Numbered from the stretch's first letter, positions 14,376 to 49,582 are shown. The stretch: 64,000 nucleotides of DNA from Candidatus Forterrea multitransposorum CG_2015-17_Forterrea_25_41 (GCA_009392915.1 CP045477.1:96001-160000), one strand, 5' to 3'. Notes: generated by a model not told the origin, from the sequence alone. Numbers and translations are program-made.

Positions 14376-14816
14376 TTGTCTAATTTTGGTGTTAAAAAAA
14401 TCTCTTTTAAATATTTTATAAAACATACTTTTATTGTTTTTTTTATTTTGTTATTTATAAGTATGTTTATTAATCTAGTATTTATTTTATTTGGTTTTAC
14501 AGATTTAGGTCTTGTTACTGAAAAAATAAAAACTCTTTCTCCATTTTTTATAGTTTATTTATTAGTTATTAGAGTTTTTTTAGAAGAATGGTTTTTTAGA
14601 GGTTTTTTAGTTTATAAAACAGGTATTTTATTTTCTGCATTTCTATTTGCTGCAGGACATTATGGGTATGGGTCTATTGTTGAAGTAGTGGGTGCTTTTA
14701 TATTAGGTTTAGTTTTAGCTTTCTATTATAAAAAAATAAATAATATTTATCCTCTTTATGCTGCGCATTTTCTATATAACTTAATGGTTATTTTAGTTAC
14801 TTTTTTTACAATTTAA
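14376..14816 (+). CDS. CPBP-family intramembrane glutamic endopeptidase (CAAX protease-like)
   Basis: Polytopic membrane protein with EEWFFRGFL, ..AAGHYGYG and HFLYN motifs (PF02517 pattern EExxxR / H / HxxxN). TTG start. Confidence 0.8.
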   Translation: MSNFGVKKISFKYFIKHTFIVFFILLFISMFINLVFILFGFTDLGLVTEKIKTLSPFFIVYLLVIRVFLEEWFFRGFLVYKTGILFSAFLFAAGHYGYGSIVEVVGAFILGLVLAFYYKKINNIYPLYAAHFLYNLMVILVTFFTI

Positions 14817-15180
14817 TTTTAATTAACAATAGTTAATTAATTATATTTTTTAAAAATTAATTTAAAGAAAAGAATAGTGGTATAGTTTAATTTATTAATG
14901 TGTAATATTTTGTATATCTATTTTAGTATTATATATATATAGTTTATGTTCTATTCTTATATTGGATTGAAAAAGCTATTCTTTATAGAGATGATAGAAG
15001 AGCTTTTGTGAGTATTATGAGTATGACAATACAACACAAATCCGATAGTTAGGAGGAGCTAAACTCAACGTGTTTAAACGGAAAAAAAATTAAGGTGTGC
15101 TCCCCTATCTTTAACATTTACTATTTTTATTATTTTCTAATATTATTTTTTCAAATTCTATTTTTTTAAGTAAATCGTAA

Positions 15181-15231
15181 TTTATAAATAATTTTTTAAT
15201 AAGTAACCTAAGTAACAATGTTACATAGGTT
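15181..15231 (+). promoter_or_regulatory. TATA box plus 27-bp near-perfect palindrome (putative PadR operator)
   Basis: TTTATAAATA at 15181-15190. AACCTAAGTAACA-A-TGTTACATAGGTT at 15205-15231 (12/13 arm match) lies where transcription would start, 31 nt before the padR ATG. The centre contains ATGT/ACAT. Confidence 0.55.
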
Positions 15232-15261
15232 TATATTCTTTTTGTTATATGTATTCTTATA

Positions 15262-15624
15262 ATGGTTACAATAAAAAATATGGCTGATAATCCTGAAAAG
15301 ATATGGTTGCAATTTCTTATATTGAGATTGATTTATGAAAATCCAACTTATGGTTATAAGTTAATTAAAGATATTAATAAAATAAGTAATGGAAAATATA
15401 TTGTTAAATCAGGTACTATGTATACTACACTTAGACGAATGGAAAAAAATAAATTACTAAATTCTATTTGGGAAAAAAATGAGTCTGGTCCTAGTAGTAG
15501 AATTTATAATCTAACTATAAAAGGTAAAATGAAACTTAAAAATTTACTTAAAATGGTTGTTGAAAGAAAAAAAATAATAGATCAGTTAATTAAATTTTAT
15601 GAAAAAGAATTTAAAGAACAATAA
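15262..15624 (+). CDS. PadR-family transcriptional regulator
   Basis: ..LRLIYENPTYGYKLIKDINK...VKSGTMYTTLRRMEKNKLL matches the PadR wHTH (PF03551). Confidence 0.8.
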   Translation: MVTIKNMADNPEKIWLQFLILRLIYENPTYGYKLIKDINKISNGKYIVKSGTMYTTLRRMEKNKLLNSIWEKNESGPSSRIYNLTIKGKMKLKNLLKMVVERKKIIDQLIKFYEKEFKEQ

Positions 15625-15648
15625 ATATAATGTAAATTAAGATTATTT

Positions 15649-15873
15649 ATGAAAATAAAATTACATCAAATATTACTTTGGATTACAATAATTTCTTTAA
15701 TAGTTTTAGTTATATCTACTGTGCCTTTATTAGTTAGTTATTTAAAAAATCTAGATGTTAAATTTCCAATGTTTGTAACTATTCATGTTTGGTCTGGTAT
15801 TATACTATTAGTGGTTGTATTATTAAGAGTTTTTATTAATCGTAAAAAATTAAAGATAATGCTTACTAATTAG
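15649..15873 (+). CDS. small two-TM membrane protein
   Basis: 74 aa with two hydrophobic helices (..HVWSGIILLVVVLL..). Tightly spaced in the PadR operon. No family recognised. Confidence 0.4.
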   Translation: MKIKLHQILLWITIISLIVLVISTVPLLVSYLKNLDVKFPMFVTIHVWSGIILLVVVLLRVFINRKKLKIMLTN

Positions 15874-15897
15874 TTATTTTAAAAATTAAGGAGTTAA

Positions 15898-17103
15898 TTG
15901 ATTAATATGTTTTCAAAAAAAATTATTTTAGTATCTGTTTTATTTTTACTTACATCTTTATTTTCGGGGTTGATTTTCTCTGAAAGATATATAGATAGTT
16001 CTTATGTTCAAGTTATTGCTCAAGAAGTAAGTCCTGAACCAGTAGAGCCTGGTCAAGATTTTTTACTAAAAGTTAGAGTTCATAATTTTGGAACAGTGGA
16101 TGCTAAAAATGTAAAAATTAATCTTGATTTAAATTATCCTTTTTATTTAAAAAATACAAGTGAGTCTTATATTGACTTTAATTCGATTTGTTCTAATTGT
16201 TCTGCAGAAAATACATATTATTTTACAGTTTCAAGTTCTGCAGTTTCAGGGATATATCCAATACATTTTAATATATCTGAAATAAATAATGAAACTGTTT
16301 CTTTTAAACCTCAAATAATAGATATTTCCATATTAGGTAAACCTGATTTAGTTTTAGAAACCATAAAAGTAGATCAAAATATTTCTGCCGGAGATATATT
16401 TAATATTAAATTTTTATTAAGGAATATAGGTACTGGGAATTCTAGAAATATAAAAATAATTCCTAATTCTGATGATTTTATGCTTATTGGGACAAATACT
16501 AAATGGTTTGAAGAATTAGGTCCCAATAAAGAAATTATTTTTGATTTAAATTTTATTTCAAACAAAGATTTAATTTCAAATAGTTATATTTTTCCTATAG
16601 ATCTTGAATTTTTAGGAGAAAAACAAAATTTTTATACCTCTTCATATAATATTGGAATTAATCTTTTAGGAAAAGCAGATTTATCTTTACAAAATTTAAA
16701 AATTACTCCTTTAAACCCTTCTTTAAAAGATTTAATTAATTTTGAAGGAATTATTGAAAATATAGGAAATGGAAAAGCAAATAATGTTTCTTTAGAATTA
16801 TTTGTTTCAAATGATGAGAATTATAAATATTATATTGGTCAATTAAATAAAGATGATGATGCTCCTTTTTATTTTAATGAAATTAAATTTAATTCTGTTG
16901 GAAATAATAAAGTAAATTTGATTGTAAATTATGATGATGATTACGGTAATTATAAAATAGAAATTCCTTTAAATCAAAATATAAATAAATCTAATAATTT
17001 ATCTTTATTTTTTATAGTTTTATTTTTATTTTTGGTTTTATTTTTTAGTTTGTATTTATTAAAAAATAATAAACACAATAAAAATAAAAAAATAAAGAAT
17101 TGA
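15898..17103 (+). CDS. surface protein with repeated CARDB/COG1361-like domains, C-terminal TM anchor
   Basis: Signal peptide. Repeated ~100-aa modules with V.P..PG..F.L.V...N.G...A.NV (e.g. EPVEPGQDFLLKVRVHNFGTVDAKNVKINL; NISAGDIFNIKFLLRNIGTGNSRNIKI; LINFEGIIENIGNGKANNVSLEL). C-terminal TM plus KNNKHNKNKKIKN tail. Confidence 0.6.
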   Translation: MINMFSKKIILVSVLFLLTSLFSGLIFSERYIDSSYVQVIAQEVSPEPVEPGQDFLLKVRVHNFGTVDAKNVKINLDLNYPFYLKNTSESYIDFNSICSNCSAENTYYFTVSSSAVSGIYPIHFNISEINNETVSFKPQIIDISILGKPDLVLETIKVDQNISAGDIFNIKFLLRNIGTGNSRNIKIIPNSDDFMLIGTNTKWFEELGPNKEIIFDLNFISNKDLISNSYIFPIDLEFLGEKQNFYTSSYNIGINLLGKADLSLQNLKITPLNPSLKDLINFEGIIENIGNGKANNVSLELFVSNDENYKYYIGQLNKDDDAPFYFNEIKFNSVGNNKVNLIVNYDDDYGNYKIEIPLNQNINKSNNLSLFFIVLFLFLVLFFSLYLLKNNKHNKNKKIKN

Positions 17104-17114
17104 TTTAGATTTAT

Positions 17115-18314
17115 ATGAATAAAAAAGATATTAAGCTAATGTTTTTTTTAGCTTATAAAAATATAATTAAAAGTAAATCTACTTTTATTGTAATTGTAGC
17201 TGTAATGGCTATGAGTTTTTTGTCAATAACTTTTTTTTCTGCAATTATTGATGGGTTAAGTTATGAATTTGAAGAGTCGATGATTGATGGTCAAACAGGG
17301 CATTTAATGATCGAACCATCTAATGAAGAAAGTTTTATATTTAATTCTGATAGATTAGAAAAAAATATTTCTAAAATTCCAGGAGTAATTGGTGTTTCTT
17401 CAAGATTAGAATCAAATATTTTAATTACTTATAAAAATGAAGAGCTAGGGGCACCTGTTTTCTTTATTGATCCTATTGATGAACAAAAAGTATCTAATTT
17501 TCATGAAAGTTTAATAGAAGGTAGTTTTCTTTCATATAAAGATACATCTGAAATTATTATTGGTTCTGATTTACTAGAACAGTATGCGCCTATAGATGAT
17601 ACTAAGAAAAGGTTTAATCTTAGAATAGGGGATAATATTATTTTAACTTTTAATAATGGTTATAAAAAAGAATATAAAATCAAAGGTATTTTTAAAACAG
17701 GTTCTAAGTTTAATGATGATAAAATTTTAATTAATAAAGAAGAATATTTTTCAATATTTAATAAAGAAGATATTTCTCATAAAATACTTGTTAAACTTCC
17801 TTCAAGAGGTCTTGAAAAAGAATATATTCAAAAGATAGAAGCTTTAGGAATAATTGAACAGATTAACCCTTGGGAAACTAAGATTGGTATGATTAAACAA
17901 TTTGTAGGAAGTCTTCAAATTACAAATCAGATAACTGGTTTTATAGGTTTATTAACTGCATTTGCAACAATTTACATAATTATTTTTATAAATGTAACTA
18001 ATAAAAGAAAGCAGATAGGTATATTAAAAGCTATAGGTATAAAAAAAAAAATTATTCTTGGATCATATATTATTCAATCTTTTATTTATGGTTTTGTAGG
18101 TGTTATTTTTGGAAATATTATTATGCAAATTTTGTTGGCTTTACTTGCAAGTTATCCATTATCTATGCCTATTGGGGATGTAGTTCCATTACTAACAATA
18201 GGTAAATTATTAACTACCTCTTTTATTTTAATTTTAGCCTCTATTGTTGCAGGTTTTTTCCCTTCTAGAAAAGCTTCTAATGATAATATCTTAGATGCTA
18301 TATTTGGAGGATAG
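17115..18314 (+). CDS. ABC transporter permease, FtsX/MacB-type with large extracytoplasmic domain
   Basis: TM1, ~230-aa loop, then a 3-TM FtsX domain (..KRKQIGILKAIGIKK..). Immediately followed by a MacB/LolD-type ATPase. Confidence 0.85.
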   Translation: MNKKDIKLMFFLAYKNIIKSKSTFIVIVAVMAMSFLSITFFSAIIDGLSYEFEESMIDGQTGHLMIEPSNEESFIFNSDRLEKNISKIPGVIGVSSRLESNILITYKNEELGAPVFFIDPIDEQKVSNFHESLIEGSFLSYKDTSEIIIGSDLLEQYAPIDDTKKRFNLRIGDNIILTFNNGYKKEYKIKGIFKTGSKFNDDKILINKEEYFSIFNKEDISHKILVKLPSRGLEKEYIQKIEALGIIEQINPWETKIGMIKQFVGSLQITNQITGFIGLLTAFATIYIIIFINVTNKRKQIGILKAIGIKKKIILGSYIIQSFIYGFVGVIFGNIIMQILLALLASYPLSMPIGDVVPLLTIGKLLTTSFILILASIVAGFFPSRKASNDNILDAIFGG

Positions 18315-18317
18315 ATT

Positions 18318-19007
18318 ATGATTAAAAATATTATTGAAGTAAATAAACTTGAAAGAATATATTCTAATGGAATTGTTAAAACTTATGCCTTAAAAGACGT
18401 TTCTTTAAGTATAAAACCTGGTGAATTTGTTGCAATTATGGGGCCTAGTGGTTCTGGAAAAAGCACTTTACTTCATCAGTTAGGACTGTTAGATACTCCA
18501 ACTAATGGAAGTATTATTATTGATAATGAAGATGTATCGAAATTAACTGATAAACAAAAAACTACCTTTAGATTAGAAAAATTAGGTTATGTTTTTCAGT
18601 CATATAATTTATTACCAGAACTTAATGTTATTGAAAATGTTTTTTTAACCTCTATGGCTAAAGGTTTAGATCCTAAAGAATATAATTTGAGAGCAAAAGA
18701 TATTCTTGAAAAAGTAGGTTTAAAAGATAGATTGTATTATTATCCTTCTGAACTTTCTGGAGGTCAACAACAAAGAGTTTCTATTGCAAGAGCATTAGTT
18801 AATAAACCTAAAATTTTATTTGCAGATGAACCAACTGCAAATCTTGATTCTGATTCTTCTCAAGATATAATTGATTTATTTAAAAAATTAAATAAAGAAA
18901 TTAATCAAACTATTGTTATGGTAACACATGAATTAGAAGAAGGTAAAAAAGCAGATAGGATAATTTGGATTAAAGATGGTATTCTAGATAAGTCTGTAAA
19001 AGTTTAA
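18318..19007 (+). CDS. ABC transporter ATP-binding protein (MacB/LolD-type)
   Basis: Walker A GPSGSGKST, signature LSGGQQQRVSIARAL, Walker B ILFADEPT, H-loop VTHE. Confidence 0.95.
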   Translation: MIKNIIEVNKLERIYSNGIVKTYALKDVSLSIKPGEFVAIMGPSGSGKSTLLHQLGLLDTPTNGSIIIDNEDVSKLTDKQKTTFRLEKLGYVFQSYNLLPELNVIENVFLTSMAKGLDPKEYNLRAKDILEKVGLKDRLYYYPSELSGGQQQRVSIARALVNKPKILFADEPTANLDSDSSQDIIDLFKKLNKEINQTIVMVTHELEEGKKADRIIWIKDGILDKSVKV

Positions 19008-19108: not shown

Positions 19109-19618
19109 ATGAAGTCAAGATATATTTTATTAGTTTTAATATTGTTAATTATAATTATAGGTTTTATTATATTTTATAATAAATCAAATTCTAATTATTT
19201 TTTAAAAAATAATATTTTGGATAATAATTTATCTGTAGAAGAAATAAATGCTTTAAACGCAACTTTAAATGATGAATATAAAGCAGAAGCTATCTATCAA
19301 AAAGTTATTAATAAATTTGGAAATGTTCCACCTTTTGTAAATATTATGTCTGCTGAACAAAAACATAGTTCTTCTTTAATTATGTTATATAATAAATATA
19401 ATTTAACTATTCCAGAAAATGATTGGTATAATGAAGTTCCAGAATATGAAAGTGTTCAAGAAGCTTGTAAAGCAGGAGTTAATGCTGAAATTGAGAATGC
19501 TGCTTTATATGATGAAATGATGAAAAATATAACTCATGAAGATATAATTCAAGTTTTTAATTCCTTAAAAAATGCTTCTTTAGAAAAACATCTTCCTGCT
19601 TTTGAAAGATGTTCTTAA
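19109..19618 (+). CDS. DUF2202-type ferritin-like protein, N-terminally membrane-anchored
   Basis: N-terminal TM. LNDEYKAEAIYQKVI.KFG.V.PF.NI..AEQKH...L..L pattern remembered from DUF2202 (ferritin-like four-helix) proteins. Confidence 0.6.
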   Translation: MKSRYILLVLILLIIIIGFIIFYNKSNSNYFLKNNILDNNLSVEEINALNATLNDEYKAEAIYQKVINKFGNVPPFVNIMSAEQKHSSSLIMLYNKYNLTIPENDWYNEVPEYESVQEACKAGVNAEIENAALYDEMMKNITHEDIIQVFNSLKNASLEKHLPAFERCS

Positions 19619-20474: not shown

Positions 20475-20500
20475 AATGTAATTTTTATAAACATATTTTA

Positions 20501-20555
20501 TATTACTCACATCTGTGTATTACTCACAATCTTTTTAAATGTTTTGAGTAATACA
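20501..20555 (+). promoter_or_regulatory. direct and inverted repeats immediately upstream of the Fic gene
   Basis: TATTACTCACA at 20501-20511 and 20518-20528. TGTATTACTCA (20516-20526) is perfectly complementary to TGAGTAATACA (20545-20555), ending 5 nt before ATG 20561. TATA-like TTTTTATAAA at 20483-20492. Confidence 0.55.
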
Positions 20556-20560
20556 TATTT

Positions 20561-21496
20561 ATGAGTTATTTATCTAAACTTAAAAGAAATAATAAAACAT
20601 ATTATTATCTTGTAGAAAATATTCCTATATCTAAAGGTAGGCGAAAACAAATTAGAAAATATATAGGGACAATTAAACCTACAGATCAAAAATTATCTTT
20701 AGAACTATTAAAGTTTGAAAAAGAAATTACTTCTAAAAAAAAACAAATGCAAGGATTTACCTATTTAACTAAAGAAGAAATAAAAGAAGTAGATGAAATT
20801 AATTCAAATTTTTGGAAAAAATATAATAAATTATCAAAAACTGAGAGAGAAGAATTTTGGAATAATTTTATTGGAATTTTTGTTTTTAACACAAACTCAA
20901 TAGAAGGTTCAACTTTAACATTAAAGGAAGTTGAACTACTATTATCTGAAAATATATCTCCAAATAGACCTTTAGAAGATGTTTTAGAAGCAAAATCTGC
21001 AAAAAAAGCAATTAATTTTATTTTAAATTATAAATCTGATTTGTCAATAGATTTAATTACTAAAATTCATAAAATATATTTTAAAGAAAGCTTTCCAGAT
21101 ATAGCTGGTAAATTTAAAAGATTAAATAATAGAATAAAAGGATCAAAATTTGATACTACTCCAAAAGAACTAGTTTTAACTGATTTAAAAATACTTATAG
21201 ATAATTATAAAAAATTTAAAAAAGAATTACATCCAATAGAATTATCTGCTTGGTTGCATTGGTCTTTTGTAAAAATTCATCCTTTTCAAGATGGAAATGG
21301 AAGAATTTCAAGATTACTTATGAATTTTATACTTTTTAAAAATAAATATGCTTTAATAGATATTAAAACAAAAGAAAAACAAACATATTTTAATTCTCTT
21401 GAAAAATGTAATTATTTGAATAATGGAAAACCATTAGCTCAAAGATTAGTTAGAAGATTTAAAAAACAGTATAAAAATATATTTTCAAATTTATAG
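20561..21496 (+). CDS. Fic/DOC-family protein (AMPylase-type motif)
   Basis: Canonical Fic motif HPFQDGNGRISRLLMNF (HxFx[DE]GNGRxxR). Confidence 0.9.
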   Translation: MSYLSKLKRNNKTYYYLVENIPISKGRRKQIRKYIGTIKPTDQKLSLELLKFEKEITSKKKQMQGFTYLTKEEIKEVDEINSNFWKKYNKLSKTEREEFWNNFIGIFVFNTNSIEGSTLTLKEVELLLSENISPNRPLEDVLEAKSAKKAINFILNYKSDLSIDLITKIHKIYFKESFPDIAGKFKRLNNRIKGSKFDTTPKELVLTDLKILIDNYKKFKKELHPIELSAWLHWSFVKIHPFQDGNGRISRLLMNFILFKNKYALIDIKTKEKQTYFNSLEKCNYLNNGKPLAQRLVRRFKKQYKNIFSNL

Positions 21497-46443: not shown

Positions 46444-46518
46444 GGGAGTGTAGCTTAGTCTGGTTGGAGCACTCGACTGATAATCGAGAGGCCGCAGGTT
46501 CGAATCCTGCCATTCCCA
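46444..46518 (+). tRNA. tRNA-Ile (anticodon GAU)
   Basis: Acceptor GGGAGTG/CATTCCC, anticodon stem CTCGA/TCGAG, loop CTGATAA, T arm GCAGG-TTCGAAT-CCTGC, discriminator A. TTTATAAATT box about 20 nt upstream. Confidence 0.9.
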
Positions 46519-49450: not shown

Positions 49451-49525
49451 GGAAGTGTAGCTTAGTCTGGTTAGAGCATTGGTCTTATACACCAAAGGTC
49501 GCAGGTTCGAATCCTGCCATTTCCA
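49451..49525 (+). tRNA. tRNA-Ile (anticodon UAU)
   Basis: Acceptor GGAAGTG/CATTTCC, anticodon stem TTGGT/ACCAA, loop CTTATAC (UAU), T arm GCAGG-TTCGAAT-CCTGC. D and T arms almost identical to tRNA-Ile(GAU) at 46444. Confidence 0.85.
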
Positions 49526-49582
49526 CTTTTTTTTAAAAATAAAGCTTTATAAATCTAATTAACTACTATATATTAGATAATT

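Follow-up and report, generated by a model that had tools for sequence, protein, structure and literature searches.

What machine is encoded by the five-gene locus at positions 15181 to 19007 of the stretch of the Candidatus Forterrea multitransposorum genome analysed here (64,000 nucleotides, CP045477.1:96001-160000; hereafter the window), and is it governed by a single PadR-responsive switch? The locus encodes a PadR-type regulator, a mini-protein with two transmembrane (TM) segments, a CARDB-domain (COG1361) protein, an FtsX/MacB-type permease and an ATP-binding cassette (ABC) ATPase. A preliminary description, made from the sequence alone, had proposed a PadR-controlled module in which the CARDB protein serves the ABC motor as outside partner or substrate. 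In the comparisons reported here the last three genes appear to be a cassette inherited and exchanged as a unit by archaea. With slightly better than even confidence, the locus is read as an inducible module of the type VII ABC class, serving in envelope stress or extrusion, in which the CARDB protein is a dedicated immunoglobulin (Ig)-like partner.

The CARDB, permease and ATPase genes form a conserved triad

Relatives of the CARDB protein were encoded at 24 loci in a pattern scan that covered one genome per species. At 21 of these the DNA extended past the CARDB gene, and at every one of the 21 the FtsX permease gene came next in the same orientation; the ATPase gene followed the permease in each of the 17 loci with enough DNA. 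The earlier claim that a COG1361/FtsX/ATPase triad recurs in archaea was therefore upheld by the neighbourhood count, with 21/21 loci in the order CARDB-FtsX-ATPase. Carriers were found among the Iain-, Woese-, Aenigmat- and Altiarchaeota and in the Methanosarcinales (Methanolobus, Methanococcoides and Methanomethylovorans). In the Aenigmatarchaeota locus L009 (5601-7466), two ankyrin-repeat genes and a flavodoxin gene lay between the CARDB and FtsX genes; the FtsX protein of this locus was unusually diverged (35% identity).

The three genes were also coupled in their organization and evolution. Start and stop codons of triad genes overlapped by 4 nt in several lineages, and the pairwise divergences of the three proteins were correlated (r 0.82-0.96). 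Between the window and the Woesearchaeota or Methanosarcinales, FtsX and the ATPase were 63-77% identical and the CARDB protein 32-45%, as against 24-42% for the few other proteins common to the window and these triad loci. The difference between 63-77% and 24-42% therefore points to transfer of the cassette between phyla, to strong constraint, or to both. A literature search returned no paper linking COG1361 or CARDB with FtsX in archaea and none describing the triad, in agreement with its having been called functionally uncharacterised.

The permease and ATPase belong to the type VII ABC superfamily

The permease contained the FtsX domain PF02687 (E = 2.4e-14; 53.8 bits, cut-off 25.5). Its nearest profiles were those of LolC/E, the cut-offs of which were not reached (TIGR02212 lolCE, E = 6.5e-22, 78 vs 362 bits), and its matches among PDB sequences were LolF, MacB and YtrF. 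The structural model (predicted local distance difference test score, pLDDT, 86.6) contained helices at residues 21-61, 258-296, 311-346 and 362-388 and an alpha/beta ectodomain at 64-252. This arrangement of TM1, an ectodomain of about 220 aa and three further TMs, together with Lol and MacB fold matches, confirmed the MacB/FtsX layout first noticed in the sequence. The best folds were LolE (TM-score 0.71-0.72), MacB, Spr0695, HrtB, YbbP and YtrF. In Foldseek searches the permease matched full-length LolE, LolC and MacB as well as the isolated ectodomains of LolE, LolC, MacB and YknZ, identifying the ectodomain as of the Porter/Sabre (MacB_PCD) type. PF12704 is recorded on many permease orthologues; the window protein was not matched by it at E 0.01.

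The ATPase matched ABC_tran (E 1.7e-38) and, below the equivalog cut-off, the LolD model TIGR02211 (E 7e-71; 238 vs 308 bits). Its top PDB matches were the MacB nucleotide-binding domain, MJ0796, Spr0694 and LolD, with E values of 1e-56 to 1e-59 for MacB, MJ0796 and LolD. The protein is as near to MJ0796, the classic crystallographic model of the ABC dimer (E 1.6e-58), as to MacB and LolD.

Four TMs, an ectodomain between TM1 and TM2, an FtsX C-terminal domain and a LolD/MacB-type nucleotide-binding domain place the transporter in the type VII ABC superfamily, and it scored below the equivalog thresholds for LolCDE, FtsEX and MacB. LolCDE proper was rejected on scores below the equivalog cut-offs, the single permease gene and the lack of a LolA-like gene in the operon; the FtsEX cell-division system was rejected on its scores (TIGR00439, 29.7 vs 255 bits; TIGR02673, 200.7 vs 264.85 bits). 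Within the core clade, conservation was 55% in the permease ectodomain vs 75% in the TM domain, a pattern compatible with a contact between the CARDB protein and the permease through their ectodomains.

The CARDB protein is a C-terminally anchored three-domain protein

The CARDB domain PF07705 was detected above threshold (E = 3.4e-11; 43.7 bits, cut-off 22.7). Translation probably starts at ATG 15907, giving 398 aa, as in the database twin and in the 80% relative. The AlphaFold model (pLDDT 88.5, from an alignment of 26 sequences) consisted of a helix at residues 5-26, beta-sandwiches at 37-145, 151-256 and 262-363, and a helix at 368-400; the C-terminal TM helix was followed by a Lys-rich tail. 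In orthologues the N-terminal hydrophobic helix is a cleavable signal peptide with AxA-like sites (VSA/VFA-type). Because of this signal peptide and the C-terminal TM helix, the ectodomain is placed outside the cell and anchored at its C-terminus, as the preliminary description had it.

In total 71 full-length homologues were found, and an exhaustive profile search yielded 588 representatives at E<1e-30. About 100 of the best 150 among these were three-domain proteins of 360-420 aa matched in a single stretch. With a CARDB domain above threshold, a full-length match, a signal peptide, sandwiches and a TM helix, the window protein belongs to this three-domain CARDB/COG1361 family, whose three domains are about equally conserved (35-41%). 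Its conserved motifs include EVSPEPVEPG, DDDAPFYF and DDFGxH.

The proteins of this family are named 'S-layer protein' or 'COG1361 S-layer family protein' in databases, where no supporting evidence is given. Together with the generic adhesion and surface use of the CARDB fold, and with the existence of FtsX/ATPase pairs that have no CARDB gene, these names suggest that the protein might be an S-layer component or adhesin that is merely co-expressed with a generic exporter of antimicrobial peptides or drugs. We consider this very unlikely, since adjacency in fixed order held at 21/21 loci over five archaeal lineages and was accompanied by co-divergence. Moreover, a lattice protein would be fast-evolving and constitutively expressed, unlike this 390-aa protein, which retains 32-45% identity between phyla and is encoded behind a repressor; the operon context argues against a constitutive lattice protein.

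Alternatively, the CARDB protein might be the cargo of a Lol-like machine that extracts its C-terminal anchor and releases it, or passes it to the surface layer, in the way LolCDE handles lipoproteins. In structure and profile comparisons the permease indeed matched LolE, LolC and LolF best, the CARDB gene is always the first of the triad operon, and the CARDB protein ends in a variable TM helix and basic tail, with a loosely conserved (R/K)P(T/K)N-like stretch ahead of this anchor in many orthologues. That stretch is, however, not kept family-wide, the NCBIfam Lol models score far under their cut-offs (78 vs 362 bits), neither a LolA-like carrier nor a second permease paralogue is present, and stoichiometric, translationally coupled expression suits a complex better than an enzyme and its substrate. 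The cargo model is thus judged unlikely, and a dedicated partner is preferred.

A candidate PadR operator lies in the promoter of padR

The regulator matched PF03551 over profile positions 1-74 of 75 (E = 6.7e-19; 68.1 bits, cut-off 27), and its residues 17-111 aligned with solved PadR/LmrR-type chains of 110-130 aa, its best solved relatives. Proteins of the PadR-s2 subfamily have about 110 aa and a single C-terminal dimerisation helix (PMC3506622). At 120 aa and aligned with LmrR-type chains, the window protein is of this size class, as judged from sequence alignment. The initial assignment to PadR was correct, and within PadR-s2 the regulator is a new but ordinary member. Proteins of this subfamily bind at their own promoters and regulate neighbouring genes for ABC pumps or membrane proteins. 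Examples are LmrR-LmrCD, which combines PadR-s2 autoregulation with a neighbouring ABC pump, and bcPadR1-BC4207, whose membrane-protein gene is induced by enterocin AS-48 (PMC3506622; PMC5050560).

A 27-bp palindrome, AACCTAAGTAACA-A-TGTTACATAGGTT, in which 12 of 13 arm positions are complementary, precedes the genes just as first described; no further copy with at most 2 mismatches was found within the window. In first-order Markov (dinucleotide-frequency) simulations requiring 13-nt arms with at most 1 mismatch and at least 7 G/C, comparable palindromes arose about 0.25 times per 64 kb, and 18% of simulated sequences held at least one. By itself the palindrome is therefore only mildly unusual, and its weight rests on position and conservation. 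It lies less than 60 nt from the PadR start and is 25/27 identical in L002, where DNA further upstream is about 50% identical, and for these reasons a chance origin is unlikely.

The consensus PadR operator is an ATGT/ACAT inverted repeat with a spacer of 8-10 nt (PMC3506622; PMC5050560). The window site has this geometry in the promoter of the regulator's own gene, with an AAGT-N9-ACAT core. In L002, L026, L029, L031 and L032 the site is AATCTATGTAACAATGTTACATAGGTT, with a perfect 21-bp core (ATGT-N9-ACAT) in which the one mismatched arm pair of the window site is restored and one outer pair is lost. The site is accordingly of the ATGT/ACAT kind that had been proposed, an ordinary PadR operator in form. 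A metagenome scan for CTAWGTAACAATGTTACWTAG recovered three orthologous operons, L028 with the window-type site and L026 and L029 with the L002-type site, and no operator variant beyond these two. The remaining matches of the scan were dismissed as chance occurrences in AT-rich virus-like contigs and one contig of 41% GC. In two of the AT-rich virus-like contigs (L030 4525-4559 and L025 2446-2480), a perfect 35-nt palindrome, A7-CTATGTAACAATGTTACATAG-T7, follows genes and contains the 21-nt core of the relative's operator; the likeness is probably a coincidence, as no PadR gene is nearby. Within the window, repeated TATTACTCACA motifs occupy the promoter region (20490-20560) of a Fic gene (20561-21496), and ATGT-N8-10-ACAT, which is matched exactly at just two places in the window, has one of these matches there, at 20539.

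The TATA-like octamer TTTATAAA at 15181, taken in the preliminary description as the TATA box, is present in sequence but missing at the aligned position in L002. TTTAWA hexamers occur at 7.6 per kb in the 23% GC window, and given this frequency and its absence from L002 the distal box is no more than expected by chance. The leader of a transcript begun from it would be about 50 nt long and would lack a Shine-Dalgarno motif; leadered genes in the window bear GGTG or GGAG at -14 to -11. The proximal TTTATAT at 15230, by contrast the likelier box, is kept in L002 with its first T at -32 relative to the padR ATG. Starts of TTTAWA were enriched at -31 to -27 of start codons (13/38 window genes vs about 5 expected), both Shine-Dalgarno-led and leaderless starts are used by the organism, and no Shine-Dalgarno motif was found ahead of the padR ATG. 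Since the TATA sequence is conserved, its spacing is typical of the genome and a Shine-Dalgarno motif is lacking, a leaderless promoter with the proximal TATA at 15230 is, from the sequence, the more likely. With this conserved box and a leaderless start, the palindrome would not sit at the transcription start as had been thought, but would overlap or abut the transcription factor B recognition element (BRE) and TATA box. Repression by occlusion follows from either promoter geometry.

The regulator is exchanged while the triad is retained

Only two Iainarchaeota variants have the triad together with PadR and the mini-protein. In four Woesearchaeota loci a regulator of the HTH_10 family follows the ATPase gene, immediately except in L004, and in L020 it is followed by a homologue of the mini-protein. 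Two half-size ArsP_1-like permease genes lie between the ATPase gene and the HTH_10 regulator in the Woesearchaeota locus L004 (9011-10017). At 12 loci, 11 with the triad plus the truncated L021, a divergent TrmB-family gene lies upstream. These loci belong to the Methanosarcinales, one Altiarchaeia and two metagenomic contigs, and the encoded protein mostly carries DUF7436, the version in L039 being shorter (146 aa) and TrmB-only. A dedicated regulator adjoins the triad at 18 loci (19 with the window), and the CARDB gene at the truncated locus L021, and is drawn from three unrelated families. PadR control of the triad, as first proposed, fits the Iainarchaeota, where PadR adjoins it, but is a lineage-specific add-on that is replaced elsewhere by HTH_10 or TrmB-DUF7436. 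Because the adjacent regulators are dedicated yet interchangeable, an inducible rather than a housekeeping function is suggested.

The mini-protein, too, had been counted as part of the module. It lies in the operon and has two TMs, but it is not obligate to the triad. A word-indexed search gave five close relatives; homologues occurred in the orthologous operons, behind the HTH_10 regulator in L020, and alone in L033-L038. The stand-alone homologues are 82% identical and lie in unrelated contexts with a different upstream motif. His6 and His46 are conserved. Matches to cytochrome b561 and DUF4405 units were below threshold, and neither family was accepted. The distribution suggests that the mini-protein either goes with the regulator or has a role of its own, outside the core of the machine, perhaps as a membrane sensor or as a separate resistance factor. 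Beside stand-alone homologues (L033 4900-5000 and L036 2300-2407), short AGTATACT-like palindromes flank a TTTTTAAATTT box, which suggests a different regulator for the same mini-protein gene. In non-coding DNA at L033 6826-6905 a 23-nt unit, TAATATATATGCACTTTGTAACA, is present in 3.5 perfect tandem copies.

Organization and surroundings of the operon

Five open reading frames, all on the + strand, span 15262-19007 (Table 1). The gaps between them are, in order, 24, 24, 11 and 3 nt, the second becoming 33 nt if CARDB starts at ATG 15907, in keeping with the co-directional genes and short gaps originally reported.

Table 1. Features of the padR-triad locus, in window coordinates.
Feature	Position	Strand	Basis or status
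Distal TATA-like octamer TTTATAAA	15181..15188	+	Sequence present; probably not a functional promoter
27-bp imperfect palindrome, putative PadR operator, AAGT-N9-ACAT core	15205..15231		12/13 arms; conservation
Proximal TATA-like box TTTATATT	15230..15237	+	Conserved in L002; likely promoter of a leaderless padR transcript
PadR regulator, 120 aa, PadR-s2 type	15262..15624	+	Pfam PF03551
2-TM mini-protein, 74 aa, family uncharacterised	15649..15873	+	Two hydrophobic segments
CARDB/COG1361 protein	15898..17103	+	Pfam CARDB; AlphaFold model
FtsX/MacB-type (type VII ABC) permease, 399 aa	17115..18314	+	Pfam FtsX; model; fold matches
LolD/MacB-type ABC ATPase, 229 aa	18318..19007	+	Pfam ABC_tran; TIGR02211; PDB matches

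The same five genes are carried by L002, an 80%-identical relative, to which L026, L029, L031 and L032 are identical. In the comparison with L002, DNA identity was 80-89% from about 15197 to 19007 and about 50% just outside on both sides, the level of unrelated AT-rich DNA, so that the flanks could not be aligned. The conserved block begins about 8 nt 5' of the palindrome and finishes at the stop codon of the ABC ATPase gene. The CARDB protein was 100% identical to its counterpart on L001, a DPANN contig labelled Candidatus Iainarchaeum sp. A known anti-phage defence system was rejected, as the PADLOC system-specific models gave only generic ABC/P-loop and LolE-TM matches to the operon.

Upstream of the operon are ribosomal protein genes and, on the same strand at 14376-14816, a gene for a CPBP/Rce1-like intramembrane protease, which is absent beside the operon in the related lineage (L031). 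This family is often tied to bacteriocin immunity. The 445-nt gap before padR had no Rfam match at E<=1. It includes a GC-richer patch (15040-15130), absent from the 80% relative, that holds the imperfect inverted repeat GATAG..GGAGGAGC / GCTCCCCTATC; the patch had no Rfam match and folded no better than shuffled sequences (z about -1.2 on either strand). On the 3' side, a DUF2202 (ferritin-like) gene at 19109-19618 is a single 169-aa reading frame in the window and is split into frames of 76 and 90 aa at L001 9212-9720 and L028 667-1175, on contigs that are otherwise near-identical. Further along the window, a tRNA-Ile with anticodon UAU is encoded at 49451-49526; tRNA-Ile(GAU) is also present, at 46444.

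Proposed working of the module

In the favoured model a PadR-s2 dimer would bind the 27-bp palindrome, as its motif, position and conservation indicate. The right arm of the palindrome runs into the BRE and TATA box of the predicted leaderless promoter, and bound PadR would keep TBP and TFB off, repressing padR and the four following genes, most likely as one transcript. PadR would be freed by an inducing signal, which by analogy may be a compound that is hydrophobic or active on the envelope. The MacB/LolE-like permease, with its four TMs, would work as a homodimer powered by a dimer of the LolD-like ATPase. Like its type VII relatives, the permease probably lacks a transmembrane channel, and ATP would serve to drive movements of the Porter/Sabre ectodomain. 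On the outside, the CARDB protein, with type-I anchoring and three Ig domains, would be the dedicated partner; it may pass on or take up a compound drawn from the outer membrane leaflet or pseudo-periplasm, or may itself be moved by the motor. We infer both this partner role and the substrate. The net role would most likely be envelope defence or repair against amphipathic toxins, and the 2-TM mini-protein would travel with the regulator, not with the triad.

Several observations weigh against this model. The window site has one mismatch within the ATGT core, only two operator variants are in hand, and conservation covers the whole promoter block, not the palindrome alone. The window PadR lacks, in its C-terminal helix, the Trp of the LmrR drug pocket. 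The TM anchor of the CARDB protein is not conserved (signal peptide and anchor about 18% identity), so that any contact with the permease must be made through the ectodomains. Fold searches with the CARDB protein gave only generic beta-sandwich matches, and no solved structural relative was found. FtsX relatives at 37% and 36% identity are without a CARDB gene. As homologues at 40% and 38% keep the CARDB-FtsX-ATPase order, the association with CARDB defines a clade of permeases. Finally, 15841-15900, the 3' end of the mini-protein gene and the following gap, is the best-conserved DNA after padR (95-98%). As this DNA holds TTTTAAAA upstream of the CARDB ATG by about 30 nt, the triad may have its own promoter.

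This last point leads to the possibility of split regulation, in which PadR and its operator control only padR, perhaps with the mini-protein gene, and the triad depends mainly on a promoter at the end of that gene. The TATA-like TTTTAAAA at about -30 is accompanied by GGAG before the CARDB start, the triad works elsewhere with other regulators or none adjacent, and the mini-protein gene also stands alone under a different upstream motif. On the other side, DNA from the operator to the ABC stop codon is conserved in two lineages as one sharp-edged block, the gaps are only 3-33 nt, the window contains no second copy of the palindrome, and TATA-like strings are common by chance in this genome. 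Split regulation is therefore considered doubtful, with a modest chance of being right, and a single PadR-controlled transcript is retained as the working model.

A bolder reading is that the triad is an archaea-specific device for mechanotransmission, in which cytoplasmic ATP hydrolysis acts through the MacB-like permease on an integrin-leg-like, single-pass Ig protein and changes the surface rather than pumping a solute, the cassette being exchanged between DPANN episymbionts and Methanosarcinales and each recipient rewiring its regulator. We hold this to be decidedly unlikely; if true, it would bear on adhesion, cell-cell contact or surface-layer remodelling.

Bacterial MacB/FtsX-type systems are understood through their outside partners (MacA-TolC, LolA and EnvC/PcsB). 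For archaea, which lack an outer membrane and murein, the triad supplies a concrete, strictly co-conserved candidate partner for such motors, and it occurs in the cultured hosts Methanolobus and Methanococcoides. Swapped regulators and cross-phylum conservation mark it as a mobile functional unit. PadR and its 27-bp operator form a simple predicted switch in a DPANN archaeon, and hardly any regulation has been characterised among the DPANN.

Comparison with known systems

The regulatory part resembles LmrR-lmrCD of Lactococcus and bcPadR1-BC4207 of Bacillus cereus, in which regulators of about 110-120 aa likewise have an ATGT/ACAT repeat in their own promoters. The neighbour under control is an ABC transporter for LmrR and a small membrane-protein gene for bcPadR1, and the window unites both arrangements. 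The window differs in that its host is archaeal, so that repression must act on recruitment of TBP, TFB or RNA polymerase, in that its ABC system is of type VII and not an LmrCD-type exporter, and in the absence of the LmrR pocket Trp.

The transporter resembles in architecture LolCDE and LolDF, which release lipoproteins in Gram-negative bacteria and share with it a four-TM permease whose Porter/Sabre ectodomain lies between TM1 and TM2, as well as a LolD-type ATPase as a separate protein; LolE is the best fold match of the permease and LolF its best PDB sequence match. Unlike LolCDE, the window has a single permease gene, the product of which is presumably a homodimer, has no LolA-like carrier, and has an Ig-like anchored protein as partner; archaea, unlike the Gram-negative hosts of LolCDE, also lack an outer membrane.

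The type VII ABC fold and the ATPase family are common to the window and to MacAB-TolC, Spr0694-0695/YknYZ, BceAB, HrtBA, YtrEF and YbbAP. MacB-type pumps act on compounds of the outer leaflet or periplasm, which they extract or expel, and not on those of the cytoplasm; they are often stress-induced. In contrast to MacAB-TolC, the window has no membrane-fusion protein or outer-membrane channel, and its ATPase is not fused as in MacB. A three-domain CARDB accessory is not known with MacAB-TolC or with the Gram-positive MacB-type pumps.

FtsEX with EnvC, PcsB or RipC offers a parallel in concept, in that its ABC motor works through a permease of the FtsX type on an extracytoplasmic protein dedicated to it, and the FtsX Pfam domain is common to both. 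The window scores only 21-30 bits against FtsX equivalog cut-offs of 225-255, its ectodomain is Lol/MacB-like, and its candidate partner, unlike those of FtsEX, is not a coiled-coil activator of hydrolases; the organism has no murein. The obligatory pairing of such a motor with a C-terminally anchored three-Ig-domain protein, in cells with neither outer membrane nor murein, has no described counterpart.

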